DNA of 64,000 nucleotides from Bacteroidales bacterium (GTDB lineage: Bacteria; Bacteroidota; Bacteroidia; Bacteroidales; P3). The stretch lies in contig JAFZDP010000033.1 in assembly GCA_017561155.1 (NCBI GenBank), positions 1,007 through 65,006 on the forward strand, given 5' to 3'. A program made the translations under genes and the position numbers. The notes beneath the pieces are model-generated. The model was not told where the DNA came from, searched no databases, and worked only from the letters and a program-made list of their open reading frames with translations. Below are positions 1,396-64,000 of the stretch, piece by piece. The first letter of the stretch is position 1; every line of letters starts with the position of its first letter.

Positions 1396-2018
1396 GGGCT
1401 TCGCTAACGCTTTGCAGACTACGAGACTACGAGTGGGGCTACGCTGCGCTTCGCTGACAACGGACAACAGACAAAGGACAACGGAGGGCTACGCTAACGC
1501 TTCGCCAGACTACGAGACTACGAGACAACTAGTCAACAAGACAACAAGTAGGGCGGTAGTCGGAACAAGGGAATTACGGATCTACGGAATTACGGAGGGC
1601 TTCGCCTGGGGATAGAAAGTAGAGAAAGTAGAGAAAGTACAGAAAGTACAGAAAGAACCTTCTATACCCTCTATACCTTCTGTACCCTCTATACCCAAAG
1701 AAATCCTTTAAACATAAAAAAGACTGTAGTCTGTTGACCGTAGTCCGTAGTCCTAGAAAAGAACTTTAGACTTATGACATTAGCCTTTCGACATTAAGTA
1801 AAGCTTCGCTGCGCTTCGCCAGAGAAACGACAAAAGCCATGAGACAAAAGAGACATTAGACTTTAAACCAAACAACTAGTAGTCTCGTAGTCCTAATAAA
1901 TACTCTCTATACTCTCTAGACTATTCTATACCCAAAGTAAACCTTTAGCCTTTTGTCATTTGCCTTTAGACATTAAACAAAAAACGACTGTAGTCCGTAG
2001 TCCATTGTCTGTAGTCCT
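1396..2018. repeat. Mosaic microsatellite block A (header + 7-9 bp unit modules; forward half to about 1655, then reverse-complement vocabulary)
   Basis: Forward half: GGGCTTCGCTAACGC..AGAC(TACGAGAC)n, (AACGGAC)n, (TACGGAAT)n, (TAGAGAAAG)n. Reverse half: (CTCTATACC)n, (CGTAGTC)n. Shares 66-100 nt identities with blocks B and C. Confidence 0.95.
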
Positions 2019-3735: not shown

Positions 3736-4317
3736 GGCTTCGCCGGGGCTGCGACAGACAAAGGACAAAAGTCGTAAGACAAAAGAAGCTCGTTAGACTT
3801 ATGACATTAGCCTTTCGACATTAAGTAAGGCTTTGCTGGGGCTGTGCCAGACTACGAGACAACTAGTCAACAAGACAACAAGTGGAGGCTGCGCTGGGGC
3901 TGCGCCGGAAATACGGAATCACGGAATTACGGAGGGCTTCGCGACAAAGGACAAAAGACGTAAGGCAAAAGGTGAGCTTCGCTAGACTACGCAAATAACA
4001 GACAACGGACAACAGACAACGGAGGGCGGTTGCCGGATCTAGGGATTTACGGAATCACGGAATTACGGAGGCTTCGCTGGACCTACGGATCTACGGAGTC
4101 ACGGAACTACGGAAACACTTTCTGTACACTCTATACCATTCTATACTCTCTCTACCTTTCGACTTTAATCCTTAAACAAAAAACGACTGTAGTCCGTTGA
4201 CCGTAGTCTGTAGTCTTAAAAATACTCTCTATACCCAAAGAAATCCTTTAAACATAAAAAAGACTGTAGTCTGTTGACCGTAGTCCGTAGTCTATCGAAT
4301 AAAAAAAATCGTAGTCC
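3736..4317. repeat. Mosaic microsatellite block B
   Basis: Starts on the base after the AbiEii stop codon and ends on the stop codon of the convergent ATPase gene. Same module vocabulary as the other blocks. 4227-4292 is identical to 1687-1752. Confidence 0.95.
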
Positions 4318-5564
4318 TAAAGCATCCAGCGCCAACACGGCATTATTATGATTTCCTTTCCATCGGGCAATGAAATTGTTTCAGATTCTGTCAACGTCAG
4401 TATTATGCCGGAGTTTAAACCAAAAGCATCCATAGCAGTTTGCAAGCCTTTCAGTTCTCGACTGCGAGTAGGTTCGGACTCCATAGATGCCGTAACTTGT
4501 ATAACTTGTTTGACAGTATTTCTTTCTCTAACAACGAAATCACATTCAGCACCATCGTTGTAATAAAATACATTTCCACCTCTTCTCAACAATTCCACAG
4601 CTACCAAATTTTCCAACCAGCGACCAATATTTTTACTCATATTAAATCCTATTTGAGAGGCTAATGCGTTGTCGATAAAATAAATCTTCTTTGGACTACG
4701 CAACTGAACACCTACTTTGGGACTATATTTACATAGCTGAGAAATCAAATAAGTTTGCTCTATATTATCGATCCACGAAGATATAGTGTCGGAACTTGAT
4801 ATACCTATATTTTTTGCTACAGAATTGTAGGTGCATAGATTAGTAGCATTACTAGCCAAGTAGAAAAGCATTTCTCGCAATTGACGTTCCGATGAGATTT
4901 TATTTCGGACAATGACATCACGAAAAACTATATCGGAATAGATGGATTTCAGATAATTCTCACTGCCATTATTCAAATACTGAGGGAAGCCACCCTTGAC
5001 AAGATACTCTTGAAAAGATGAAGATAATAGAGCTTTGCCTTTTGTAGTAAAAAAATCTTTACGACTAAAATCGATACCAAGAAATTCGAGATATTCGGCA
5101 AAAGAGAATGGATACAACTCGTGAGTAACATGTCGTCCGGTGAGTAATGTGCCCATTTCTTTGCTTAAAAGATGAGCATTGCTACCGGTAACAAATACTT
5201 TATTGCCTGAAGAATACAGTCGGCTTACAAATCGTTCCCAGCCATCTATATTTTGAATTTCATCGAAATAGTAGGTATGCTGTTCTCCAAATTCTTCATG
5301 AAATAACTCGTCGAGCTTTTGAAAGTCTTCTACAGTAAACGACAACAACCTTTCATCATCGAAGTTTATATAATAATCCCGTTCGCTACGAGAAGTTTGT
5401 ATTTGACGTAAAAGAACCGACTTACCACAGCGACGTACACCAGTAATAACAAGAACTTCGGCACAATTTAGTAATTTCGAATCTATTTTTCGAGCAATTA
5501 TATTGTGTAATTTATATTCTTTTTGCTCGTAAATTATCTGTAAAAGAGTATCTTTCGTTATCAT
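4317..5564 (-). CDS. AAA+ ATPase with DUF4143-type C-terminal domain (COG1373-like)
   Basis: Walker A GVRRCGKS and a Walker B-like YYFDEIQ. I chose the start at the internal Met (MITKDTLL) because a TATATTTG box lies 21 nt upstream of it. Confidence 0.75.
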   Translation of the reverse strand: MITKDTLLQIIYEQKEYKLHNIIARKIDSKLLNCAEVLVITGVRRCGKSVLLRQIQTSRSERDYYINFDDERLLSFTVEDFQKLDELFHEEFGEQHTYYFDEIQNIDGWERFVSRLYSSGNKVFVTGSNAHLLSKEMGTLLTGRHVTHELYPFSFAEYLEFLGIDFSRKDFFTTKGKALLSSSFQEYLVKGGFPQYLNNGSENYLKSIYSDIVFRDVIVRNKISSERQLREMLFYLASNATNLCTYNSVAKNIGISSSDTISSWIDNIEQTYLISQLCKYSPKVGVQLRSPKKIYFIDNALASQIGFNMSKNIGRWLENLVAVELLRRGGNVFYYNDGAECDFVVRERNTVKQVIQVTASMESEPTRSRELKGLQTAMDAFGLNSGIILTLTESETISLPDGKEIIIMPCWRWML

Positions 5565-5592: not shown

Positions 5593-5668
5593 CGAATAAT
5601 TTCCCAATGGCAGTAGGAAAATAAAAAAAAACTTCCTATTATCATTGGGAAGTTTTGTTAATAAGACG

Positions 5669-6070
5669 TGGGCTACGCTGGTGCTTCGCAGACTACGAGA
5701 CTACCAGTCAACTAGACAACGAGTGGGGCGGTAGCCGGAACAAGGGAATTACGGATCTACGGAATTACGGAGGGCTTCGCGACAAAGGACAAAAGACGTA
5801 AGGCAAAAGGTGAGCTTCGCTAGACTACGCAAATAACAGACAACGGACAACGGAGGGCGGTTGCCGGAACAAGGGATTTACGGATCTACGGAATTACGGA
5901 GGGCTTCGCCTGGGGATAGAAAGTAGAGAAAGTACAGAAAGTACAGAAAGAACCCTCTATACCTTTTATACCCTCTATACCCTCTATACCCAAAGAAATC
6001 CTTTAGACATAAAAAAGACTGTAGTCCGTTGACCGTGGTCCGTAGTCCGTAGTTCTTAAAAAATAGTCCT
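5669..6070. repeat. Mosaic microsatellite block C (cleanest exemplar)
   Basis: Six forward modules are followed by (CTCTATACC)4 and (CGTAGTC)n. 5761-5868 equals 3923-4037 minus one 7-nt unit. Confidence 0.95.
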
Positions 6071-6113
6071 AAAAAAACTTCCCTTGAGTGTAATACTTAA
6101 GGGAAGTTTTTTT
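6071..6113. terminator. Bidirectional intrinsic terminator hairpin
   Basis: Stem CTTCCCTT (6078-6085) pairs with AAGGGAAG (6099-6106). It is flanked by an A-run and a T-run and lies just downstream of the minus-strand gene ending at 6141. Confidence 0.7.
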
Positions 6114-6140
6114 GTTTGTGTATATTTATTTTGCTTTTGT

Positions 6141-19995: not shown

Positions 19996-20077
19996 GTTTG
20001 CCGTTGCAATAGTATTCATTTTCTTCTAAAACACTTTTTACAGATGCTTACAACACTTTTTACTTTCTTCGGAAATG

Positions 20078-20399
20078 ATAGTATAGAAAGTGCTGTAGTT
20101 ATAGTATAGAGAGTGCTGAAATTATAGTATCGAATGTACTGAAGAGATTATAGAAAATACAGATTTACATGATAAAAAACCTGCACTTGCGATGTGAAAT
20201 ATTGGAATTTTAAATGTGATAAATAGGCTATTTTTCACATCAAAAAAGCCTATTTTTTATAATGCAAGTGGCACTTCGACACCATGCAAGTGGCTATTTC
20301 GCATTGTCTCTCCAATACTCTCGGTATTATATCTCCGGCACTTTCTGTACTATGTATACAATACTTTCGACACTATGTCGTTAGTACTTTGTAAAAAGT
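20078..20399. repeat. Inverted 4 x 23-bp arrays flanking a roughly 140-bp core, upstream of an HU-like gene
   Basis: Forward units ATAGTATAGAAAGTGCTGTAGTT occupy 20078-20169. Reverse units occupy 20308-20399; the reverse complement of unit 20331-20353 matches unit 1 at 19/23 by eye. The units contain the TATAGAAAG/TATAGAGAG core of the mosaic family. Confidence 0.85.
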
Positions 20400-20468
20400 G
20401 TTTCTGAACAAATAGAAAATTGTTTCAGAAGAAATAGAAAAGTAAAACAATACAAACCAACAATAATA

Positions 20469-34005: not shown

Positions 34006-34470
34006 GAGGGCTTCGCTGTCGCTTCGCAGACTTGTGCTTCGCTATCGCTTCGCAGACTAAGGGCAAAAGTATAGAAAGTATAGAAAGTAGAGAAGGTATA
34101 GAAAGTATAGAAAGTATAGAAAGGCTGTGAGCTACGAGTCATGAGTTATGAGCCGGCTTCGCCCTATCCGTGATTCCGTAGTTCCGTTAATCCATAATTC
34201 CGTGATTCCGTAAATCCGGCTACTGCTCTCCCTTTTGTCTTACGACTTTCGTCTTTTGACAGCGAAGCTCAATTTCCGTGATTCCGTAATTCCATAGTTC
34301 CATAATTCCGGCTACTGCCCTCCATTTTGTCTTACGACATTTGTCTTTTGTCGGCATAGCCACCGCGAAGCTACAACCGGCTGCTGCTCTCCATTTTGTC
34401 TTACGACTTTCGTCTTTTGACAGCAAAGCTCAATTTCCGTGATTCCGTAATTTCGGCGTAGCCTCAGTCT
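34006..34470. repeat. Mosaic microsatellite block D
   Basis: Two double-GCTTCGC headers and (TATAGAAAG)n in forward orientation, then reverse vocabulary (ATTCCGTA, CCGGCTAC, GTCTTACGAC, GCGAAGC). Confidence 0.95.
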
Positions 34471-34562
34471 GTTTGAAATGTTAAACTAGAAATGCTCAAT
34501 TCTTAAATTTTTGCTCTTTCTGAGAGTATGAAATATATGCCTGTTGGGACTCTCTGAAAAAT

Positions 34563-34640
34563 GACCCGCCCCTAAATTGATTTTCACCCGGGGTATTTTT
34601 AATTTTACCCCGCCCCTAAATGAATTTTACCCCGCCCTAT
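34563..34640. repeat. Three direct copies of a GC box, (T/G)ACCC(C)GCCCCTAAAT, in the AT-rich unique core
   Basis: Copies at 34563-34577, 34606-34621 and 34628-34640 (the last is shortened). The palindrome ACCCGGGGT lies between copies 1 and 2. Confidence 0.85.
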
Positions 34641-34867
34641 TTTTTAGTCGTTCCCGGATATGGTGTAAAAGGGAGTGATATGTGTGTTTAATATTTTGAT
34701 TAATAATTTATTATCTTTTTTGATGTTGCTTGTGACACTCATCGCTAAAGCATAGGATTTGATGCTTGATAGAAGTTTTTGAATTGTTAAAAATGCCCGT
34801 GTTAAAAATTCTTTAAATTGTTAAAAAGTACTCTGTTTGTTAGTTGGATATCTTTTTGATAATAGAC

Positions 34868-35354
34868 TTTGAGTGCTGAGCAATGAGTGGGGCGGCAGCC
34901 GGAACTGCGGAATAAGGGTATAGAGAGTATGGAGAGTATAGAGAGTATAGAGAGTATAGAGGGTATAGAGGGTATAGAGGGTTTCTCTATCTTCTCTACT
35001 TTCTGTACTTTTAAAGGACAACGGACTTTGGCTACGCCAAGACTACAAGACAACTAGTCAACGAGACCTTGGCTGTGCCAGACAACAAGACAACGAGTCT
35101 ACGAGACAAGTAGTAGGGCGGTGGTTGGAATCACGGAATAAGGGTATAGAGGGTATAGAGGGTATAGAGGGTATAGAGGGTATAGAGGGTATAGAGGGTA
35201 TAGAGAGTCTCTCTACTTTCTGTACCTTTCTATACCTTTTTTGTCCTTTGCCTTTTGCCTTTCGTCGTTAGTCGGCGAAGCGACAGCGAATCCGGCTCAA
35301 AGCTCGTAGCTTGTTGCTCACAGCTAATCCGTCTGCGAAGCGATAGCGAAGTCC
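34868..35354. repeat. Mosaic microsatellite block E
   Basis: (GTATAGAGG)7 at 35144-35206 and a second 9-mer run at about 34917-34980. The block ends in reverse-orientation double-GCTTCGC headers (35273-35352). Confidence 0.95.
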
Positions 35355-35403
35355 TGACCAACTTATATTTTAATGAGTTCTTGGATATCAGCAGAAAAGT
35401 TTG

Positions 35404-37532: not shown

Positions 37533-38744
37533 ATGAAAATATTACATACCTCTGATTGGCATATAGGAAAGAAGCTATTGGATAAAGAACGTTTTGACGA
37601 ACAGCAAAGCGTAATGGAAGAAATAATAGACATAGCCAATCGCGAAGCCGTAGATATGGTGATAGTGGCCGGTGATTTGTTTGACACCTACATGCCGTCG
37701 AGCAGTGCACAGCGTTTGTTGTACACCACATTGTATCGCTTGTCGGAAAATGGGACAAGGGCAGTAGTCTGCATAGCCGGAAACCATGACAGTCCTGAAC
37801 GTGTAGAAAGTCCTGAAGCATTGGCCGATGTGTCGGGGATATTTTTGTTGGGCTATCCCAATACAAAGATAGAGGAGTTGGAAACAACCGGCAATATAAA
37901 GGTGACCAAGGTTGACGAGGGTTTTATGGAATTGAGGTTGCCTAATGTGGACTATCCTGTGCGTATGATATATACACCATTTGCAAATCAGGAACGATTA
38001 CGTAAGCTGTTCGAGATGGACGATAAGGAAGCACAGCTCCGCGACGAATTGCAACGACGTTGGACACATTTGGCAGACACTTATTGCACCGACGGCGAAG
38101 GAGTAAATTTGCTTGCAACACACTTGTTTGTGATAAAAGATTCGACCGACAATACCTCTGAACCCGACGATGAAAACTCTATAAACGTAGGAGGAACATC
38201 GGCTATATATGTAGATAATTTTCCTGCAGAAATACAATATGTTGCTTTAGGCCATTTGCATAGATGCTTTAAGGTGGGAGATCGCAATATATGGTATAGC
38301 GGAAGTCCGTTGGAATATAGTTTTGCAGAAAGCGAACAGGAAAAGTATGTTCTTGTTTCGACCATCGAACCCAACCAAGAGCCTGCTACAAAGAAAGTGC
38401 CATTGACAAGTGGCCGACGATTGGTGACGGGGGTGTTTGAAAGTGTTGACGATGCTAAGCAATGGCTGCTGGAACACCGGGATATGTGGGTGGATATGAC
38501 ACTGAAAACCGACAACTACCTTACCGCCACAGAGGTGAAAGAGCTACATCAGCTGCACGACAAAATATTGATATTGCGTCCGGTGGTGAAAACAGAAAGC
38601 TACGAAAGCCAAAGCGGCGAAAAGATAGAAGAGCTGATAAAAGACAAGGATGCATTGTTTGTAAGCTTTTTTAAGCAAAGAAACAAAGGTGTAGAGCCTA
38701 ACGAAGAAATAATGGATTTGTTTCACGAAATATTGTCAAAATAA
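37533..38744 (+). CDS. sbcD: Exonuclease SbcD (Mre11-type nuclease)
   Basis: MKILHTSDWHIGK, VIVAGDLFD, GNHDS, LGHLH phosphoesterase motifs. Confidence 0.9.
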   Translation: MKILHTSDWHIGKKLLDKERFDEQQSVMEEIIDIANREAVDMVIVAGDLFDTYMPSSSAQRLLYTTLYRLSENGTRAVVCIAGNHDSPERVESPEALADVSGIFLLGYPNTKIEELETTGNIKVTKVDEGFMELRLPNVDYPVRMIYTPFANQERLRKLFEMDDKEAQLRDELQRRWTHLADTYCTDGEGVNLLATHLFVIKDSTDNTSEPDDENSINVGGTSAIYVDNFPAEIQYVALGHLHRCFKVGDRNIWYSGSPLEYSFAESEQEKYVLVSTIEPNQEPATKKVPLTSGRRLVTGVFESVDDAKQWLLEHRDMWVDMTLKTDNYLTATEVKELHQLHDKILILRPVVKTESYESQSGEKIEELIKDKDALFVSFFKQRNKGVEPNEEIMDLFHEILSK

Positions 38745-38751
38745 AAAAGTT

Positions 38752-41700
38752 ATGATACCATTGAAACTTACGATATCGGGGATATATTCGTATCGCAGCA
38801 AGCAGGAAATTGATTTCAGAACCTTGGCAGCCAACAATATGTTTGGTATTTTTGGAGCCGTAGGCAGTGGAAAATCCACTATATTGGATGCAATAACTTA
38901 TGCATTGTATGGTCGGGTAGACCGTTTGGGGCAAAAGGAAAGAGTAAACTTTAATATGATGAATCTGAGCTCGAACACTATGGAGATAGATTTCGAGTTT
39001 ATGGTAGGGGATAAAGAATATAGGTCGTATGTATCAACACGCAGAAATGGGAAAAATTACGACGAAGTAATAAAAAGTTATTCTACATTTTCCCAAAAGA
39101 TAGATGGTAAGTGGGTGCCTATCGATTTGGATGAAAATCCGGATGCCATAGAGCAGGTCGTGGGCTTGTCCTACGAAAACTTTTCGAAGGTTATAGTTAT
39201 ACCACAGGGAAAGTTTAGAGAGTTTTTGAGCATGACAAGTGCCAAAAGAACAGAGATGTTGGCCGAGTTGTTTCCTGAACTAAATAAGTATGATTTGTCT
39301 GACAAGACATCGAAATTGTTGTTCGAAAACACCAATGCAAAAACATCGATAGAGGGGCAATTGAAAGGGCTGGAAAATGTGACAGAAGAGAATATTGAAG
39401 CACGCAAAGCCGATTTGGTACAGATAGAAACACAGCTTAATGATATAAAACCCAATATAGAAGCCGGCAAAAAGCAAAAGGCCGAAATGGAGGAATTGAA
39501 AACCGACACTGCCGAGTTGTCTCGTAATGAAAGGGAATGGGAGACACTGCAAAATGAGAAAAATATAAAAGCGGCCCAAGAGAAAGAGCTAAAACAGTAT
39601 ACCAAGTGTTTGCAAGATTTTGGAAAAGATATAGCAAACAGACTGACAAAAAAACAACAGCTGGAGCAAACCACACATTTTTTGGCAGATAAAGAAGTGG
39701 GCTACAAACAGCAGGAAACTATAGTAGATAGAACAAAGTCGGCTTTTGAAGAGTGTGCCGAAAAATATAAAAACAGAGACCAATACGCCAATAAACAAAC
39801 TAGTTTGACCAAGATACACGAGGTTAGGAATTTGGAACGAGAAAAACAAAAAGCTGAAGTTGAACTGGAAAAATTGAATGTCGAACTGAGAGCCATAGAT
39901 GTAGATATACAAAGGATAGAAGTAGAACAAAAGAACGCCGAAAAAGAAAAAAATGAACTAACTGTCATGCCGGCAGATATTGTTGCAGGTATGCAAAATT
40001 GGTATTTGACCAATGATAATAAGAACAGAGAGTTGCTAAAAAAGACAGCAGACTTGCAAGAACAACGCACCGAGGTAGATAATTTGAACAAGACGTTGGT
40101 TTCGCTATGCTTGAGGAAAGATTATTTGCAAGGTTGCAATCCCACACTGAAAGACATAAAAAGTCGGATATGCGAAACGATAAAAAAATTGGAAGAAGCC
40201 AAAGAAGATAATGAGCAGATGCTGCATAAGTTGGAGGTGCAGGAAAAACTTCACGAATATTCGTCAAATCTGCAGGAAGGCGAACCATGTCCTCTATGTG
40301 GCAGTGTGCATCACCCTAATGTTATATCAGTTACACAAAAGCCTGAAATAGATAAGCTAAAAGATAAGAGAATCAAACTGAAAGAAGATTTGAAAAACAT
40401 CACCGAAAATGGTCTGTATTGGGTAGAAACAGAAATTCAAAGAGAAACTACACGCAATGAGTCTATTGAAAAAATATCTAACGAGATAAAAAAAATAGAA
40501 AATGATATAACTGAGCATAAAGAGCTTTTTGAATGGGAAAGCTATGGCTTTTCTGTATCGGATGCCAACTACAAAGAAAAGCTTAAAATAGAGTGTGATA
40601 AGCAAAACAAATACAATAATTTGCAAAATACTATATTGGAGCTAAGCGGCGAGTTGGCAAAAAAACGAAATGAAAAGGAATCCAAACAATCGGCAAAAGC
40701 GAATTTGGAAAGAGATAAAATAGCACCGACCGAAACAGAACTGAAATTGAAGTATAATGAAATAGGAGACGAATTGTTGGAAAGCTACAAAACAACGTCT
40801 GACAAGGATATTTTGCTAGAGATAGAAAAATTGACGACCCTGTTGAAAGAGATAGAAGACAAATACGAAGAGCTGAACGAACAATGTAAAGTAGAGCAAG
40901 GAAAATTGGATACACTGCGAGGTGAAAAAAATACTTTGGAACAACAAAAGGTTGCACAAACCAAAGAACTTACAGAAATAGAGCAAGCCATATTGAACAA
41001 AATATCGGGCGAAGGATATACCTCGATAGCAGATATAGAACAAGTGCTAAACAAACATCTGGATACAGAAACAATACAAAACGAGATAGACGAATTTAAA
41101 GAACGACAAGTGTCGATATATGCGGCAATACAAAAGCTGAAAGAGAAAATAGGCGACAAAAAATACAATTCGGAAGAGCATGCACAGATAGAAATACGGC
41201 TTAACGAACTTGAAAGAAAGGAAAAGACACTGTTTACAGAAAAAGGAGCGGTAGAAAAAGAAATAGCAGATTTGACCGACAAGTTGAAAACAAAGACAGA
41301 CTTGGAACAACAAGTGGAAAAACTACAGCTACGCGAAGATAACCTAAATGTGTTATTAAAACTTTTCAAGGGTAAGAAATTTATGGAATATGTGTCTACC
41401 ATGTATTTGGAAAATCTGGTGCGAAGTGCCAACGAACGTTTCAAAAAAATGACACGTCAGCAACTAGAATTGGTGCTGGGCGAAGCTCAAGAATTTAAGA
41501 TAAGAGATTATTTAAACGCCGGAAATTGTAGGGCGATAAATACTCTTAGTGGTGGTCAAATATTCCAAGCATCGTTGTCGTTGGCATTGGCTTTGGTGGA
41601 TAATATACACTGTTTTGCCAACGATAATAAGAAATTCTTCTTTCTAGACGAAGGTTTTGGAACCCAAGATAAAGATAGCTTGGCTATAGTGCTTGAAACC

Positions 41701-41829
41701 CTCAGAATGCTACAAAAAGAAAACAGAATAGTAGGGGTGATAAGTCATGTGGAAGAACTGAAACAAAATATTCCTAATTTTATAACTGTAAAACGTTCTG
41801 AACAAGAAGGTAGTGTGATAGAATGTTAA
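38752..41829 (+). CDS. sbcC: Exonuclease SbcC (Rad50-type ATPase)
   Basis: Walker A GAVGSGKSTILDAI, long coiled coil with zinc hook CPLCGS, signature LSGGQ, Walker B FFFLDEGFG. Confidence 0.9.
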   Translation: MIPLKLTISGIYSYRSKQEIDFRTLAANNMFGIFGAVGSGKSTILDAITYALYGRVDRLGQKERVNFNMMNLSSNTMEIDFEFMVGDKEYRSYVSTRRNGKNYDEVIKSYSTFSQKIDGKWVPIDLDENPDAIEQVVGLSYENFSKVIVIPQGKFREFLSMTSAKRTEMLAELFPELNKYDLSDKTSKLLFENTNAKTSIEGQLKGLENVTEENIEARKADLVQIETQLNDIKPNIEAGKKQKAEMEELKTDTAELSRNEREWETLQNEKNIKAAQEKELKQYTKCLQDFGKDIANRLTKKQQLEQTTHFLADKEVGYKQQETIVDRTKSAFEECAEKYKNRDQYANKQTSLTKIHEVRNLEREKQKAEVELEKLNVELRAIDVDIQRIEVEQKNAEKEKNELTVMPADIVAGMQNWYLTNDNKNRELLKKTADLQEQRTEVDNLNKTLVSLCLRKDYLQGCNPTLKDIKSRICETIKKLEEAKEDNEQMLHKLEVQEKLHEYSSNLQEGEPCPLCGSVHHPNVISVTQKPEIDKLKDKRIKLKEDLKNITENGLYWVETEIQRETTRNESIEKISNEIKKIENDITEHKELFEWESYGFSVSDANYKEKLKIECDKQNKYNNLQNTILELSGELAKKRNEKESKQSAKANLERDKIAPTETELKLKYNEIGDELLESYKTTSDKDILLEIEKLTTLLKEIEDKYEELNEQCKVEQGKLDTLRGEKNTLEQQKVAQTKELTEIEQAILNKISGEGYTSIADIEQVLNKHLDTETIQNEIDEFKERQVSIYAAIQKLKEKIGDKKYNSEEHAQIEIRLNELERKEKTLFTEKGAVEKEIADLTDKLKTKTDLEQQVEKLQLREDNLNVLLKLFKGKKFMEYVSTMYLENLVRSANERFKKMTRQQLELVLGEAQEFKIRDYLNAGNCRAINTLSGGQIFQASLSLALALVDNIHCFANDNKKFFFLDEGFGTQDKDSLAIVLETLRMLQKENRIVGVISHVEELKQNIPNFITVKRSEQEGSVIEC

Positions 41830-44378: not shown

Positions 44379-44594
44379 ATTGCACAGTGTCGGTTATCGG
44401 TTTCTAATTGTATTATAAACAACGGAGGACGGTAGCCGACACATTGCTTTATGGCAAGCCGATTTTTAAAACCTACCTACAATCACCCCAAAATTTTAAT
44501 GATAGACTTGTTTTCTTTTTGATGTTTTTTAATAAATTTTCATACACTAAAAAACACATTCCATCGTTATGAAAAGACCTTTAAAGAGGTGTTC

Positions 44595-55064: not shown

Positions 55065-55095
55065 TCAAGTTCTTATCTGATAAATATACAGACCG

Positions 55096-55138
55096 AAGCA
55101 AACTATGTGATACCAACGCATGGTTTGCTTTTTTTTTC
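55096..55138 (+). terminator. deaD intrinsic terminator
   Basis: Stem AAGCAAAC pairs with GTTTGCTT, followed by T8. Confidence 0.75.
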
Positions 55139-55140
55139 TT

Positions 55141-55646
55141 GAGCTTCGCTATTGCTTCGCAGACTAAGGGCAAAAGACAAAAGTCTAAAGGGTATAGAGA
55201 GTATAGAAAGTATAGAGAGTATAGAAAGTGGGTTTCGCTGTCGCTTCGCAGACTAAGGGCAAAGGGCAAAAGTCTAAAGGGTATAGAGAGTATAGAAAGT
55301 ATAGAGAGTATAGAAAGTGGGCTTCGCTGTCGCTACGCAGACTAAGGGCTAAGGGCAAAAGTCTAAAGGGTATAGAGAGTATAGAGAGTATAGAGAGTAT
55401 AGAGAGTATAGAGAGTATCGAAAGTGGGCTTCGCTGTCGCTTCGCAGGCTAAGGGCAAAAGGCAAAAGGCAAAGGACAAAAGTCTAAAGGGTATAGAAAG
55501 TATAGAAAGGCTACGAGCTGTGAGCTTTGAGCCACTTCGCCCTATCCGTGATTCCGTAGTTCCATAATTCCGTAGTTCCGTTAATCCATAATTCCGTAAT
55601 TCTATCAATCCGTAGTTCCGTAATTCCGGCTTCGCCTCCGTTGTCT
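55141..55646. repeat. Mosaic microsatellite block G with an 89-bp higher-order tandem repeat
   Basis: Units start at 55141, 55230, 55319 and 55426, giving lengths 89, 89 and 107 (89 + 2 x 9). A reverse (ATTCCGTA)-type half follows. Confidence 0.95.
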
Positions 55647-57911: not shown

Positions 57912-58215
57912 TATGCTTCGCTGTCGCTCAGTAGACTAAGGGCAAAAGACAAAAGGCAAAGGGCAAAAGTCTAAAGGGTATAGAAAGTATAGAAAGGCTA
58001 CGAGCTGTGAGCTTTGAGCCACTTCGCCCTATCCGTGATTCCGTAGTTCCATAATTTCGTGATTTCGTAAATCCGTAGTTCCGTTAATCCATAATTCCGT
58101 GATTCCGTAAATCCGTAAATCCGTAGTTCCATAATTCCGGCTACCGCCCTTCCTTTTGTCTTACGACATTTGTCTTTTGTCCGGCGTAGCACCGCGAAGC
58201 CATGGTCTGTTGTCC
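57912..58215. repeat. Mosaic microsatellite block H
   Basis: 57964-58056 is identical (93/93 by eye) to 55477-55569 of block G, in the same orientation. Confidence 0.95.
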
Positions 58216-58216
58216 A

Positions 58217-58257
58217 TAAAAAAACTAGAGTCAACGGAAATATCCATCGACTCTAGT
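58217..58257 (-). terminator. Terminator of the HU-like gene
   Basis: Stem ACTAGAGTC pairs with GACTCTAGT. The A-run on the plus strand gives a T-run on the minus strand. Confidence 0.7.
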
Positions 58258-59533: not shown

Positions 59534-59810
59534 CTAATATTTCGTCACATACCTAAATTTAAGATATTAACAAGTGGTGATAAAAAAGGGAAAAAACTTG
59601 ATTGTGAATTATATATATGCTAATAACATCCTTTTTTTTTTTCTATATTTTTCTTGTTTTGAGTAGATTGAGATAAAAATGATTTCTTGTTTTTTTGTAG
59701 TTTTTTGATTTGAAGTTGCAAACATAGATAATATTGTTTTTTAGCGCAAATTGAATGTTAATTTCATGGTTAATAACTGTTAATAAAGTAGCGTATATAA
59801 CCCTCAAAAA

Positions 59811-59893
59811 AAATGGGTACCCATTTGTCGAAAAATGGGTACTATATTTGGGAAAAATGGGTACCCATTTCGTATGTAAATGGGTACCCATTT
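59811..59893. promoter_or_regulatory. Phased array of a perfect 16-bp palindrome AAATGGGTACCCATTT (3 exact copies + 1 half-degenerate)
   Basis: Copies start at 59811, 59833 (degenerate right half), 59855 and 59878, so spacing is 22, 22 and 23 bp. The array lies in a 740-bp region with no credible ORF. Confidence 0.85.
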
Positions 59894-60145: not shown

Positions 60146-60545
60146 ATGTATAGAAAGTAGAGAACGGTTGTGAGGCATGATCCGGTTTCGCTTTGCTACG
60201 CCAATACTAAAAGCAAAGGTCGTAAGACAAAAGGAGGGCGGTAGCCGAAGCTACGGAATTACGGAATAGAGGGTATAGAGAGTATAGAGAGTATAGAGAG
60301 TATAGAAAGTATAGAGAGTATAGAGAGTATAGAGAGTATAGAGAGTCTCTCTACTTTCTGTACCTTTTTGGGGACAACGGACTACGGACAACAGACAACA
60401 GTCGGGCGGTAGCCGGCTCAAGGCTCACAGCTCGTAGCTCATAGCTACTCCGTCTGCGAAGCGTAAGCGAAGCACCAGCGGCAGCCACTTGTAGTCTCGT
60501 AGTCTTGTAGACTAGTAGTCTCGTAGACTCGTAGTCGGCGAAGTA
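60146..60545. repeat. Mosaic microsatellite block I
   Basis: (GTATAGAGA)8 at 60273-60344, the shared junction GTATAGAGAGTCTCTCTACTTTCTGTACC, then reverse vocabulary (GCGAAGC, GTAGTCTCGTAGTC). Confidence 0.95.
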
Positions 60546-60717
60546 CACCAAAAATATATAATACTATAATTAAATGCAGTAATAACTCACATATAACCAG
60601 CGGTGGAGTTGTATAAAGAAATGTGAAAATATTTCTGATAATCAAAATAATATGGAAGATAAATTGAAAAATGGTAAAAAAATCTTTCTTTTTTGCTTGT
60701 ATATGAAAAAAAAGTAG

Positions 60718-60725
60718 TACCTTTG
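60718..60725 (+). promoter_or_regulatory. -7 box TACCTTTG driving the tracrRNA candidate
   Basis: Matches TAnnTTTG, with a TTTG-containing stretch about 25 nt upstream. Confidence 0.55.
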
Positions 60726-60730
60726 CAGCA

Positions 60731-60813
60731 CGAAAATAAAGCAAATCACAATAAGGATTATTCCGTTGTGAAAACATTTAGAGTGGGAGTTTAACGATTC
60801 TCGCTCTTTTTTT
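60731..60813 (+). ncRNA. Candidate tracrRNA of the type II-C system
   Basis: Anti-repeat-like CGAAAATAAAGCAAATCACAAT, nexus-like AAGGATTATTCCGTT, and the terminal hairpin GAGTGGGA/TCTCGCTC (two G-U pairs valid only in plus-strand RNA) plus T7. It lies 100 nt upstream of cas9 on the same strand. Confidence 0.6.
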
Positions 60814-60836
60814 GTATATTATTCAAAAATATTTCA

Positions 60837-63900: not shown

Positions 63901-64000
63901 GAAATAGTAAAACAACGATTGCTTGAACACAACAACAACGAGAAGATAGCTTTTAGTACTCCGTTGTATGCCGATGCAAATAATAAGATAGAAATAAAAA
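60913..64000 (+). CDS. cas9: Cas9 (type II-C, Bacteroidota-like); 3' end lies outside the window
   Basis: Absent from the ORF track because no stop falls in the window; my hand translation stays open from 60913 to 64000. RuvC-I MRKILGLDLGTNSIGWAV, RuvC-II IDEIRVELAREL, HNH CFYCGQ..EIEHIIPKS..CKKCNQEKNNRTAYDY, RuvC-III LDHRHHAIDALVVA. Confidence 0.93.
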   Translation, partial: MRKILGLDLGTNSIGWAVIEAEDNELVEILGMGSRIIPLTTDESNEFSTGNAISKNQKRTEKRTTRKGYDRYQQRRINLTLKLRELNMLPDEQLIKLPVLELWQLRANAATNGCKLSLAEIGRVLYHLNQKRGYKHAKADENSDKKQREYVANINNRYTHIQELGKTIGQYFFDNLKDNEVTTEKGKFYTYRIKDQVFPRKAYEAEYDQIMECQKEFYPDILTDEVIDEIRNEIIYYQRKLKSCKHLVSLCEFEKRKYINKEGKEVYDGPKVAPKSSPLFQVCKIWESVNNLTLKNRRNDELYISAEQRKAMFDFLNENEKMTLTDMYKILNITKADGWWGGKAIGKGLQGNTTKMQLRKALSNIEGADELLKFDLTTINIDKVNTETGEILKVVSPDFEKEPLYKLWHTIYSIQDKEELRNVLAKNFNITDEETINALFAIDFVKAGFGNKSSKFMRRILPYLQEGEKYSKACEYVGVNHSNSITTAENEARTLLAKLPQIQKNELRQPVVEKILNQMVNVVNAIIDKYGTIDEIRVELARELKQSKDERNETDKRMRNSQKENENIAKRIEEYGIRSSRNKIQKYKMWVEAEEKCFYCGQPVNVTEFLKGDNIEIEHIIPKSLYFDDSFSNKVCSCKKCNQEKNNRTAYDYMKTKGEEAFNEYVKRVERYYEAKKISKTKRERLLTPTDKIPNDFIDRQLRESQYIARKSAEMLRLVCRNVWTTSGSITDFLRHNWGYDEILHSVNLERYQLGGLTEMVEYEHKGQKHTEERIKEWTKRLDHRHHAIDALVVACTRQSYIQRLNNLNTERDVMFEEVEKQGAEWKEKLSLLNKWVSIQPHFPVDVVRNKVEEILVSFKSGKKVTTSGRRVVYKHGKKVVMQSDILVPRGSLSEESVYGKIKTIEEKKPIKYIFEHPDLIFKPYIKKLVEDRLKMFDGDSKKAIASLKKEPIYLREDKSAVLEYATCYKEEYVIKYPLNSLKAKDTEYITDSKIKEIVKQRLLEHNNNEKIAFSTPLYADANNKIEIK

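Follow-up and report, generated by a model that had tools for sequence, protein, structure and literature searches.

The 64,000-nt stretch of the Bacteroidales contig JAFZDP010000033.1 analysed here (hereafter the window) carries eight intergenic blocks built of GC-rich headers and short tandem arrays, and raises the question of what kind of element these blocks are and how they come to share one vocabulary. We consider it probable that they form a new, lineage-specific family of interspersed mosaic repeats, which works like repetitive extragenic palindromes (REPs) and bacterial interspersed mosaic elements (BIMEs), neisserial intergenic mosaic elements (NIMEs) or MITEs (miniature inverted-repeat transposable elements), and which evolves by slippage and ectopic recombination. 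The family is apparently undescribed in the literature and belongs with the bacterial interspersed extragenic repeats; its unusual features are doubled mini-hairpin headers, microsatellite arms under a conserved grammar, and extreme turnover between strains. The organism's genes in the window are of Bacteroidota type, and all close homologues of its RF-1 are labelled as ‘Bacteroidales bacterium’ metagenome-assembled genomes (MAGs).

Eight intergenic blocks share one vocabulary

A preliminary description of the window had proposed eight loci written in one vocabulary and covering ~3.8 kb; all eight are present, with units of 7, 8 and 9 nt, and their combined length is 3,769 nt (5.9% of the window). 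12-mers present at least three times (both strands) cover 3,206 nt, against 0–108 nt in shuffles, and lie almost exclusively inside 1415-2002, 3757-4292, 5625-6113, 34008-34450, 34914-35343, 55140-55628, 57915-58167 and 60148-60526. Tandem Repeats Finder reported arrays of period 7, 8 and 9 at every block, with the consensus units AGACTACG, GACAACG, TCCGTAAT, GTAGTCC, AGAAAGTAC, ACCCTCTAT and GTATAGAGA. The blocks and their principal features are as follows (strand given where one was assigned).

Block A, 1396..2018: mosaic cluster between an SLFN/AlbA_2-HATPase_c_4 gene and a DUF6088-AbiEii toxin-antitoxin pair.
Block B, 3736..4319: between the convergent AbiEii (+) and AAA_14/DUF4143 (-) genes.
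Block C (exemplar), 5669..6070: six header-plus-unit modules on the + strand, then a pyrimidine-rich arm.
Second header type, example in block C, 5726..5741, + strand: GGGCGGTAGCCGGAAC, containing GCGGTAGC, which fits GCGNNAGC; followed by (TACGGAWY)n.
Central hairpin of block C, 5918..5991, - strand: (AGAAAGTAC)n meets (ACCCTCTAT)n, with minus-strand pairing that includes G.U/G.T wobbles.
Bidirectional terminator hairpin of the 195-aa gene, 6070..6114: block C ends there.
Block D, 34006..34470: begins with a pair of double headers (GCTTCGC-N4-GCTTCGC-AGAC; 34010 and 34036).
Block E, 34868..35356: upstream of BatA; closes with an inverted, imperfect double header, GTCTGCGAAGCGATAGCGAAGT.
Solo header relic, 44421..44440, + strand: AACGGAGGACGGTAGCCGAC.
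Block G, 55141..55646: an 89-nt higher-order unit present three times, with a (TCCGTAAT)n arm after it.
Block H, 57912..58217: (TCCGTAAT)13.5, with an inverted double header at 58184 beside the terminator of the HU-HIG gene.
Block I, 60146..60545: upstream of a probable trans-activating CRISPR RNA (tracrRNA) and cas9; (ATAGAGAGT)9, with an inverted double header at 60456.

The likeness between blocks goes beyond single units, as positions 1486-1755 of block A are ~90% alike to block C, whole-module indels apart, and the central hairpin of block C has a counterpart in block A with a 20-pair stem (1680-1633, minus strand). Read on the - strand, the pyrimidine-rich arm of block C consists of a T-run and leader with (NACNGAC)n and (GTATAGAGG)n modules, whilst the 89-nt unit of block G is a double header followed by TAAGGGCAAAAG... 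and (GTATAGAGA)n. A terminator-like hairpin lies within block I at 60336-60363. Together, blocks D and E may represent the termini of a single composite element whose core is the 400 nt at 34471-34867. Modules chain as proposed, the junction ...TACGGA-GGGCTTCGC being found four times, and the solo header at 44421-44440 is real (seven matches at ≤3 mismatches, none expected by chance). Two earlier proposals needed correction. Arrays are not confined to 2–8 copies, the longest having 13.5 (58032-58139), and the presumed degenerate relative at 20078-20399 is a separate nested inverted-repeat element of 23-nt units, which has only the motif GTATAGAAAGT in common with the blocks. The latter element, at 20005-20427, comprises nested inverted repeats with arms of 37–38 nt (76–81% complementary), 23-nt tandem units and a ~200-nt core.

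The blocks were described as starting after stop codons or terminators and ending at them, and the positions of blocks B, C, G and H bear this out. The first base of block B is the base after the AbiEii stop codon, and its last bases, GTAGTCCTA, provide the AAA_14 stop codon (4317-4319, minus strand); block D starts directly after the T-run of the RF-1 terminator, block G after the terminator of the DEAD-box helicase gene (55095-55131) and its T-run, and block H ends at the terminator at 58258-58223. Genes bracketed by the blocks are the toxin-antitoxin pair, an AAA ATPase and the small genes of a low-GC region; the cas9 locus adjoins a block. No TAnnTTTG promoter motif was seen by eye inside them, on which ground promoter arrays were rejected; phase-variable promoter spacing was rejected too, as the blocks lie upstream of, not within, the promoter-to-gene interval.

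Headers carry a mini-hairpin consensus and are paired with particular units

The commoner header consists of GGGC and one or two copies of GCTNCGC, usually followed by AGAC or CAGAC, and the gap between the copies is mostly 4 nt (range 3–6 nt, from a listing judged by eye). The second kind of header is written GGGCGGTAGCCGG or GGGCGGTAGCC, and GGGCGGTAGCC contains the same GCGGTAGC. The complement of GCTNCGC is GCGNAGC, which, like GCGNNAGC, is a consensus of ultra-stable DNA mini-hairpins; in DNA of this type GCGAAGC has a melting temperature of 76.5 °C, the hairpins are stable in 7 M urea, and they are found at phage priming sites (PMC13037366). The blocks (3.8 kb) hold 46 occurrences of GCTNCGC/GCGNAGC vs. 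19 in the remaining 60 kb (~39-fold enrichment), and shuffled blocks give a mean of 1.2. The loop of the GCNNNGC heptamers in the blocks is T-N-C or G-N-A in 46 of 55 cases, and the header variants TTC, TAC and TGC preserve exactly the positions that the mini-hairpin requires. We infer that mini-hairpins form from the headers in vivo.

Each type of header has its own type of unit, and the pairing is identical across different MAGs. Double headers with AGAC are followed by (TACGAGAC/TACAAGAC/AACTAGTC)n, those with CAGAC or TGAC by (AACGGAC/AACAGAC)n, and those with AGACGGAGTAGC by (TGTGAGC/TATGAGC)n; GGGCGGTAGCCGG is followed by (TACGGAAT)n where AAY comes next and by (TAGCTCA)n where CTCA does. 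The unit echoes the end of its header, as had been noticed before (...GCAGAC, then TACGAGAC units). The pyrimidine-rich halves, read on the opposite strand, are a second class of module, in which 6–9 T and a short leader, either AAGGAC or ATGTCTAAAGG, lead into the same purine-rich units. Other modules are non-repetitive, among them TTAGACTTATGACATTAGCCTTTCGACATTAAG and a terminator-like hairpin, AAAAAAACCTCCCCTCAAGTATTRCACTCAAGAGAAGGTTTTG, which recurs within blocks of another species and resembles the terminator that closes block C; close relatives of that terminator hairpin (6070..6114) lie inside the blocks of contigs L146, L147 and L035 (another species).

A further type of unit, (TGTAATGT)n followed by TAATATTT, was often seen just outside a header (L109 7195-7220, L072 2240-2265 and 5375-5400, L117 5345-5375, L158 and L161), and may be a preferred flank or another module.

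Compact palindromes and accreted mosaics

The simplest form met in other MAGs is a ~80–125-nt imperfect palindrome with inverted header termini and arms of 7–8-nt units, in the order double header, (NACNAGAC)n, GGCTNCCGCC, reverse-complement array, inverted double header. The distance between forward and reverse double headers is ~85–125 nt in L038, L073, L084 and L085, and the five compact elements that were folded (77–113 nt) close end to end as single-stranded DNA (z -2.0 to -4.7). The window blocks (300–620 nt) look like accretions of such compact elements and single modules.

The claim that every block is a long imperfect palindrome stands for part of the set: folding is significant in A (z -4.7, minus strand), C (z -4.7, minus strand) and E (z -5.2, plus strand) and weakly so in H, but not in B and D, and block G folds worse than its shuffles (z +4.9). 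The switch from purine-rich to pyrimidine-rich sequence is present in all blocks, late in G. In the central 9-mer arrays one unit variant always opposes a different one, (GTATAGAGG)n vs. (GTAGAGAAA)n, so that the central stem is imperfect. Genes resembling sbcD (Metallophos) and sbcC (AAA_23, SbcC_Walker_B), which bear on the tolerance of long palindromes, lie after BatA at 37533-41829 (+), and an imperfect stem fits a genome that encodes SbcCD.

The headers are strongly biased in strand, with 37 GCTNCGC vs. 9 GCGNAGC on the + strand of the window, where GC skew is positive throughout, and forward headers open all eight blocks, even though flanking genes occur on either strand. In 17 loci elsewhere the strand of the header had no consistent relation to local GC skew, 3–6 kb per locus being too little to judge.

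Blocks differ between strains, and so do the genes beyond them

Strains were compared through contigs that encode the same flanking proteins, all from short-read metagenome assemblies. Variation in copy number between strains, which had been anticipated, is evident in blocks E and G. In block E a single 9-nt unit is gained or lost in each of two arrays (34918-34979 and 35141-35205), which gives three combinations of alleles across independent samples, and block G has three 89-nt copies in the window vs. two in another sample. Block D follows a 100% identical RF-1 and starts at the same base after the terminator, yet occurs in at least three variants, with three contigs carrying different sets of modules. 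Beside an identical 195-aa protein, at least five structural variants of block C were found, all beginning right after the same terminator. One of these, 870 nt long, is identical in L146 and L147 (independent samples, different assemblers), just as the block sequence of the window is identical in L001, L114, L140 and L145. The indel that distinguishes L148 from L140 in block C is flanked by a direct repeat of a module, a signature of slippage or unequal recombination, not of transposition.

The blocks had been seen as filler of dead zones between transcription units; at both loci that could be compared between strains (block C and the RF-1 locus), the neighbouring genes change at the block. 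Beyond the 195-aa gene and its block lie AAA_14 and the AbiE toxin-antitoxin pair, or Bac_transf and DegT, or other genes, and beyond RF-1 and its block lies BatA or other sequence; blocks flank accessory units of one or two genes. Relatives with 96–97% identical RF-1 have no block at that site and a different downstream gene.

Occurrence in other genomes

The family extends well past the window. At least eight further MAGs of Bacteroidales, obtained from the gut of sheep, yak, buffalo and humans, have the header-plus-unit grammar (among them RGIG6215, RGIG7727, RGIG9913, RGIG7494, RGIG7691, HGM05376 and Ca. Caccoplasma), picked by scoring the loci of a genome scan for the vocabulary of the window. 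The scan pattern, GCTWCGCNNNNGCTWCGCAGAC, was too permissive, most of the 109 loci among the matches listed being chance matches in GC-rich genomes, so it gives no taxonomic census; L007 and L011 were rejected as chance matches in coding DNA. A metagenome scan returned six contigs with the 24-nt header string and the same architecture around it, and an independent ENA metagenome contig has the A-B-C region in identical form. Since the grammar recurs in other MAGs and in metagenome contigs, it is neither an assembly artefact nor the property of a single strain.

The window species and RGIG6215 share 87% identity in their core genes and 65–68% at the third codon positions of these, whereas the best module matches between them, a selection that biases identity upward, are 84–100% identical over 34–73 nt. 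Such an excess of module identity over that of synonymous sites is indicative of copying, homogenisation or constraint. The 79 open reading frames (ORFs) that adjoin blocks in other MAGs are of a typically accessory kind and include DegT (four), HU-HIG (three), Bac_transf, DNA methylases, HipA and AAA_14.

Rfam covariance models run over the whole window at the gathering threshold matched a tRNA-Arg and no block, and blastn of block C against plasmid and phage collections, with the low-complexity filter on, gave no match. Viral scans with GTCTCGTAGTCTGCGAAGC returned chance coding matches (L150, L151) and nothing else, and with CGGACAACAGACAACGGAGGGC no match. A viral scan with the header pattern found two large viral contigs that carry GCTTCGC-based tandem arrays. 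In these contigs (108–175 kb; L003 11090-11200 and L004 385-500) the arrays are intergenic, (CGCTTCGCAAC)n and (TTCGCAGAC)n, are built from the same header string, GCTTCGCAGAC, and directly follow a terminator-like hairpin; beyond the next gene there is a second array, (GCAGCGTAAGCAGC...)n.

Adjoining the blocks at three loci, in two MAGs (L084 1410-1660, L024 555-640) and one metagenome contig (L162, reverse complement, 190-430), is a region of ~150 nt with three to four iteron-like TGCCATACTTTTGA motifs. At two of these loci (L084 and L162) a promoter comes next, then a ~100-nt unit that closes with a T-run and may be a small RNA or a short ORF.

Block vocabulary in frame in a primase-like protein

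Unit lengths of 7 and 8 nt had been taken to exclude a coding origin. This holds for the window blocks, where coding tandem repeats were rejected as there are no ORFs, but not for the family. In RGIG6215 (L038 1-1704, - strand) the vocabulary is in frame within a protein of >557 aa with a BT4734-like_N domain, more blocks flank the gene, and positions 266-338 of block B (block numbering) are 90% identical to the coding linker. Homologues of this protein also have DUF3987 (PF13148), and it resembles the primase-helicases of mobile elements. An alignment of 20 homologues shows conserved domains on either side of the linker, which differs in length and content among proteins that are 88–100% identical (totals 735–783 aa) and is unrelated in homologues at 40–50% identity. 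Its peptides can be read back to the vocabulary, AVAGS to GCGGTAGCCGG, MELRNHGITE to TACGGAAT units and QRTTDNGQQ to GACAACG units. The process that makes and reshuffles the vocabulary thus acts on DNA wherever this is tolerated, and absence from coding sequence is not a property of the family.

Comparison with known repeat families

The blocks had been described as matching no named element, and the negative results for CRISPR, Rfam and the literature agree with this; their likeness to REP/BIME and MITEs is nevertheless closer than had been allowed, given the 80–125-nt palindrome with inverted header termini, although formal membership still fails. REPs are imperfect palindromes of 20–40 bp with a conserved terminal GTAG or CGTC tag (PMC3733652). 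The headers here are GCNNNGC or GCNNNNGC, and GTAG stands only inside unit arrays. As in REP/BIME and the REPINs (REP doublets forming hairpins) of Enterobacteria and Pseudomonas, with their REP-associated tyrosine transposases (RAYTs), the elements are extragenic and of high copy number, with hairpin motifs in inverted pairs and mosaic clusters; as in REP/BIME they often follow the 3′ ends of genes, vary from strain to strain and persist vertically in a lineage. Two inverted hairpin motifs form a longer hairpin, as in REPINs, and occur in clusters in the window. The blocks differ from REP/BIME in their mini-hairpin motif of 7–8 nt (GCGNAGC/GCGNNAGC), often doubled as a direct repeat, in their microsatellite arms of 7–9-nt units and in their Bacteroidota host. 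A Y1 transposase or RAYT was absent from the 25 most frequent Pfam families of the 79 block-adjoining ORFs and from the window ORFs scanned.

Like MITEs, the compact elements end in inverted repeats, here double headers, and the outer ends of blocks G/H and D/E carry inverted headers. A search of the literature for the vocabulary or for repeat elements of Bacteroidales yielded only BrickBuilt, a MITE of Porphyromonas gingivalis composed of a leader, 23-nt tandem units and a tail, whose 19 copies make up 0.44% of the genome (PMC4596501). BrickBuilt is likewise from Bacteroidota, always intergenic, variable in unit number and between strains, and has small inverted-repeat ends; it has one type of 23-nt unit and one array per element, whereas the blocks have many types of 7–9 nt in multi-module mosaics that fill 5.9% of the window. 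On this ground the blocks are not BrickBuilt elements, and no sequence similarity was noticed.

Further afield, the BOX elements of Streptococcus pneumoniae and the mycobacterial interspersed repetitive units used for variable-number tandem repeat typing (MIRU-VNTR) are also dispersed, modular and intergenic, and vary between strains in the number of tandem units (boxB, MIRU), but these units measure 45–100 nt, boxA-boxB(n)-boxC has a fixed order, and mini-hairpin headers and mixed unit types are lacking. Rickettsia palindromic elements (RPEs) resemble the linker of the BT4734-like_N/DUF3987 protein as repeat DNA tolerated in frame, but are fixed palindromes of ~100–150 bp, not hypervariable microsatellite mosaics. 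NIMEs consist of 20-bp dRS3 repeats flanking 50–150-bp RS units, and at minimal mobile element sites the NIME/dRS3 arrangement has much in common with the blocks, being a mosaic between conserved genes that may offer portable homology for recombination of strain-specific cassettes; the sequences are unrelated, and NIMEs have no microsatellite arms or mini-hairpin headers. We know of no report of natural transformation in this lineage. A CRISPR array was rejected, as the 7–9-nt units run head to tail without spacers, unlike the identical 24–48-nt repeats and unique spacers of similar length that define such an array. Integron cassette arrays have attC sites with conserved R/L boxes at the 3′ end of every cassette and an IntI integrase; the window ORFs that were scanned showed no integrase domain, in a survey that included no attC- or integrase-directed search. 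In function and organisation, the nearest analogues of the blocks are BIMEs and the neisserial arrangement of NIMEs at minimal mobile elements.

Origin of the blocks

If the blocks are interspersed mosaic repeats shaped by slippage and recombination, as we think probable, the elementary module would be a GC-rich header with a short purine-rich microsatellite, two facing modules would give the imperfect palindrome, and elements and modules would have accreted after terminators into the 300–620-nt mosaics of this species. Arrays would grow and shrink by slipped-strand mispairing, a mechanism suggested by the observed changes in unit number, and modules would be exchanged between loci by ectopic recombination or gene conversion, as the shared multi-module segments, repeat-bounded indels and module swaps suggest. 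Their dispersed homology could make the blocks junctions for rearrangement and the swapping of accessory cassettes (a correlation seen at two of two informative loci and in the identity of neighbouring genes), and the embedded modules of hairpin and T-run may add transcription termination.

Several points weigh against this account. The junction role is correlative, and blocks might simply build up at sites that tolerate insertions; a clean empty site between two conserved flanks was not found, block-free sister species differing in the downstream gene as well; and look-ups of the AAA_14, DEAD helicase, HU-HIG, BatA and DUF6088 proteins turned up nothing but an unchanged arrangement or contigs that break within blocks. 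Short-read contigs often break inside blocks, so that some variants could be partly chimeric, and the between-species module identity comes from the upward-biased best matches. No direct repeat that could be a target-site duplication was seen by eye at the flanks of eight compact elements, nor was a transposase or insertion sequence found between inverted headers in the loci examined, so strict mobility is unproven. Finally, the strand bias of the headers (37 to 9) is not explained by this account.

That bias is one reason to consider a replicator like the REPINs, in which compact palindromes are copied by a single-copy enzyme that recognises hairpins in single-stranded DNA (a RAYT or Y1 enzyme of the IS200-IS605 type, or another HUH enzyme). 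GCGNAGC would be recognised at the replication fork, and the mosaics would be pile-ups resembling BIMEs. The compact elements do have inverted, hairpin-forming termini, their headers are known ultra-stable hairpins of single-stranded DNA, and modules are conserved across species; the 37 to 9 bias comes with a single orientation for all eight blocks and a uniformly positive GC skew, and GTAG, the REP tag, is abundant in the reverse units. We still regard such a replicator as unlikely, as there is no 20–40-bp REP palindrome with terminal GTAG or CGTC, no Y1 transposase in the top 25 families of the 79 neighbouring ORFs and no target-site signature, and header orientation elsewhere does not follow local GC skew (over 3–6 kb, too little to judge). 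A survey of RAYTs makes, in its main text, no mention of Bacteroidetes.

A selected function, as insulators or terminator stacks, structured RNAs or protein-binding arrays, appears less likely still. The 7-4-7 layout of GCTTCGC-N4-GCTTCGC, with the 4-nt spacer commonest, gives the spacing of one helical turn that is typical of sites for winged-helix proteins and response regulators; blocks follow terminators and hold modules of hairpin and T-run (60336-60363; L146 and L035), with stems that have G.U on one strand only; module conservation exceeds identity at synonymous sites; and HU-HIG DNA-binding genes adjoin blocks in the window and account for 3 of the 79 neighbouring ORFs elsewhere, an association confounded with accessory regions. 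Turnover is extremely fast at one locus and sister species are block-free there, which argues against a locus-specific function, and the blocks have no Rfam match, inconsistent whole-block folding and, by eye, no simple Bacteroidota promoter motif. A purely local origin, with mini-hairpins stalling replication, slippage expanding the header-adjacent bases at each locus and the likeness between loci being convergent, would explain why units echo the header end (...GCAGAC, then TACGAGAC) and why copy number varies by single units, and the presence of sbcCD implies that perfect palindromes would be removed. It is, however, largely refuted, because independent slippage cannot yield the segments of >270 nt, with several modules and non-repetitive linkers, that are ~90% identical among blocks A, B and C; unique modules (TTAGACTTATGACATTAGCCTTTCGACATTAAG and the terminator-like hairpin) recur in other species, and the pairing of header and unit is kept across MAGs, all of which makes convergence highly improbable. 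We give almost no credence to low-complexity joins made or scrambled by short-read assemblers: all the data are metagenome assemblies and many contigs end within blocks, but identical blocks come from independent samples and assemblers (the window matches L001, L114, L140 and L145, and L146 matches L147), NCBI MAGs of different host origin and other metagenome projects show the same grammar, and the vocabulary stands in frame in a protein with conserved flanking domains.

More speculatively, and with little confidence, we note that the blocks could be the product of a system for writing or copying repeats that is new to Bacteroidota, in which GCGNAGC mini-hairpins would serve as recognition or priming sites in single-stranded DNA and a mobile-element primase-helicase of the BT4734-like_N/DUF3987 type, whose own linker carries the vocabulary, or an unrecognised HUH enzyme, would lay down units by hairpin-primed slipping synthesis. 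If true, this would explain both the grammar of headers and units and the strand bias, and the family would be a self-propagating replicator, an analogue of REPIN-RAYT with a distinct mechanism, that shapes where accessory genes are exchanged.

Features beside the blocks

Between block C and the likely promoter of AAA_14 (TATATTTG, minus strand, ~5590), an inverted repeat, TTCCCAATG...CATTGGGAA, surrounds an A/T run at 5596-5655; the annotated start of the 442-aa AAA_14 ORF is probably too far upstream. Small ORFs around blocks G–I had no Pfam match. At 59809-59893 there are 3.8 tandem copies of a 22-nt unit, AAAAATGGGTACCCATTTGTAG, each with the palindrome TGGGTACCCA; lying upstream of the HU-HIG region, they may form an operator-like array.

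Directly downstream of block I, cas9 (RuvC_III, HNH, Cas9_a) runs from ~60913 (+) past the window end at 64000, and encodes 1,226 aa in a matching contig; there is no CRISPR array within the window. Upstream of the gene, at 60700-60815 (+), lies a promoter of Bacteroidota type and, after it, a short unit ending in a terminator hairpin (60780-60807) and T-run. The 5′ part of this unit, AAAGCAAATCACAA, resembles an anti-repeat to GTTGTGATTTGCTTT, which we take to be the usual Bacteroidota type II-C CRISPR repeat, and the unit is probably, on this resemblance, a tracrRNA.

Implications

Much is known of interspersed extragenic repeats in Proteobacteria (REP, BIME, REPIN) and Neisseria, but they have hardly been studied in gut Bacteroidales, where this family would be a clear and abundant example. 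The blocks explain why short-read assemblies break at particular intergenic sites, and they are very fast-evolving markers for the tracking of strains in gut metagenomes. They also mark the places where accessory genes, including toxin-antitoxin, ATPase and capsule genes and the CRISPR-Cas neighbourhood, differ between strains. GCGNAGC mini-hairpins are known mainly from phage origins and from work in vitro, and the family could reveal a genome-wide role for them in the cell.

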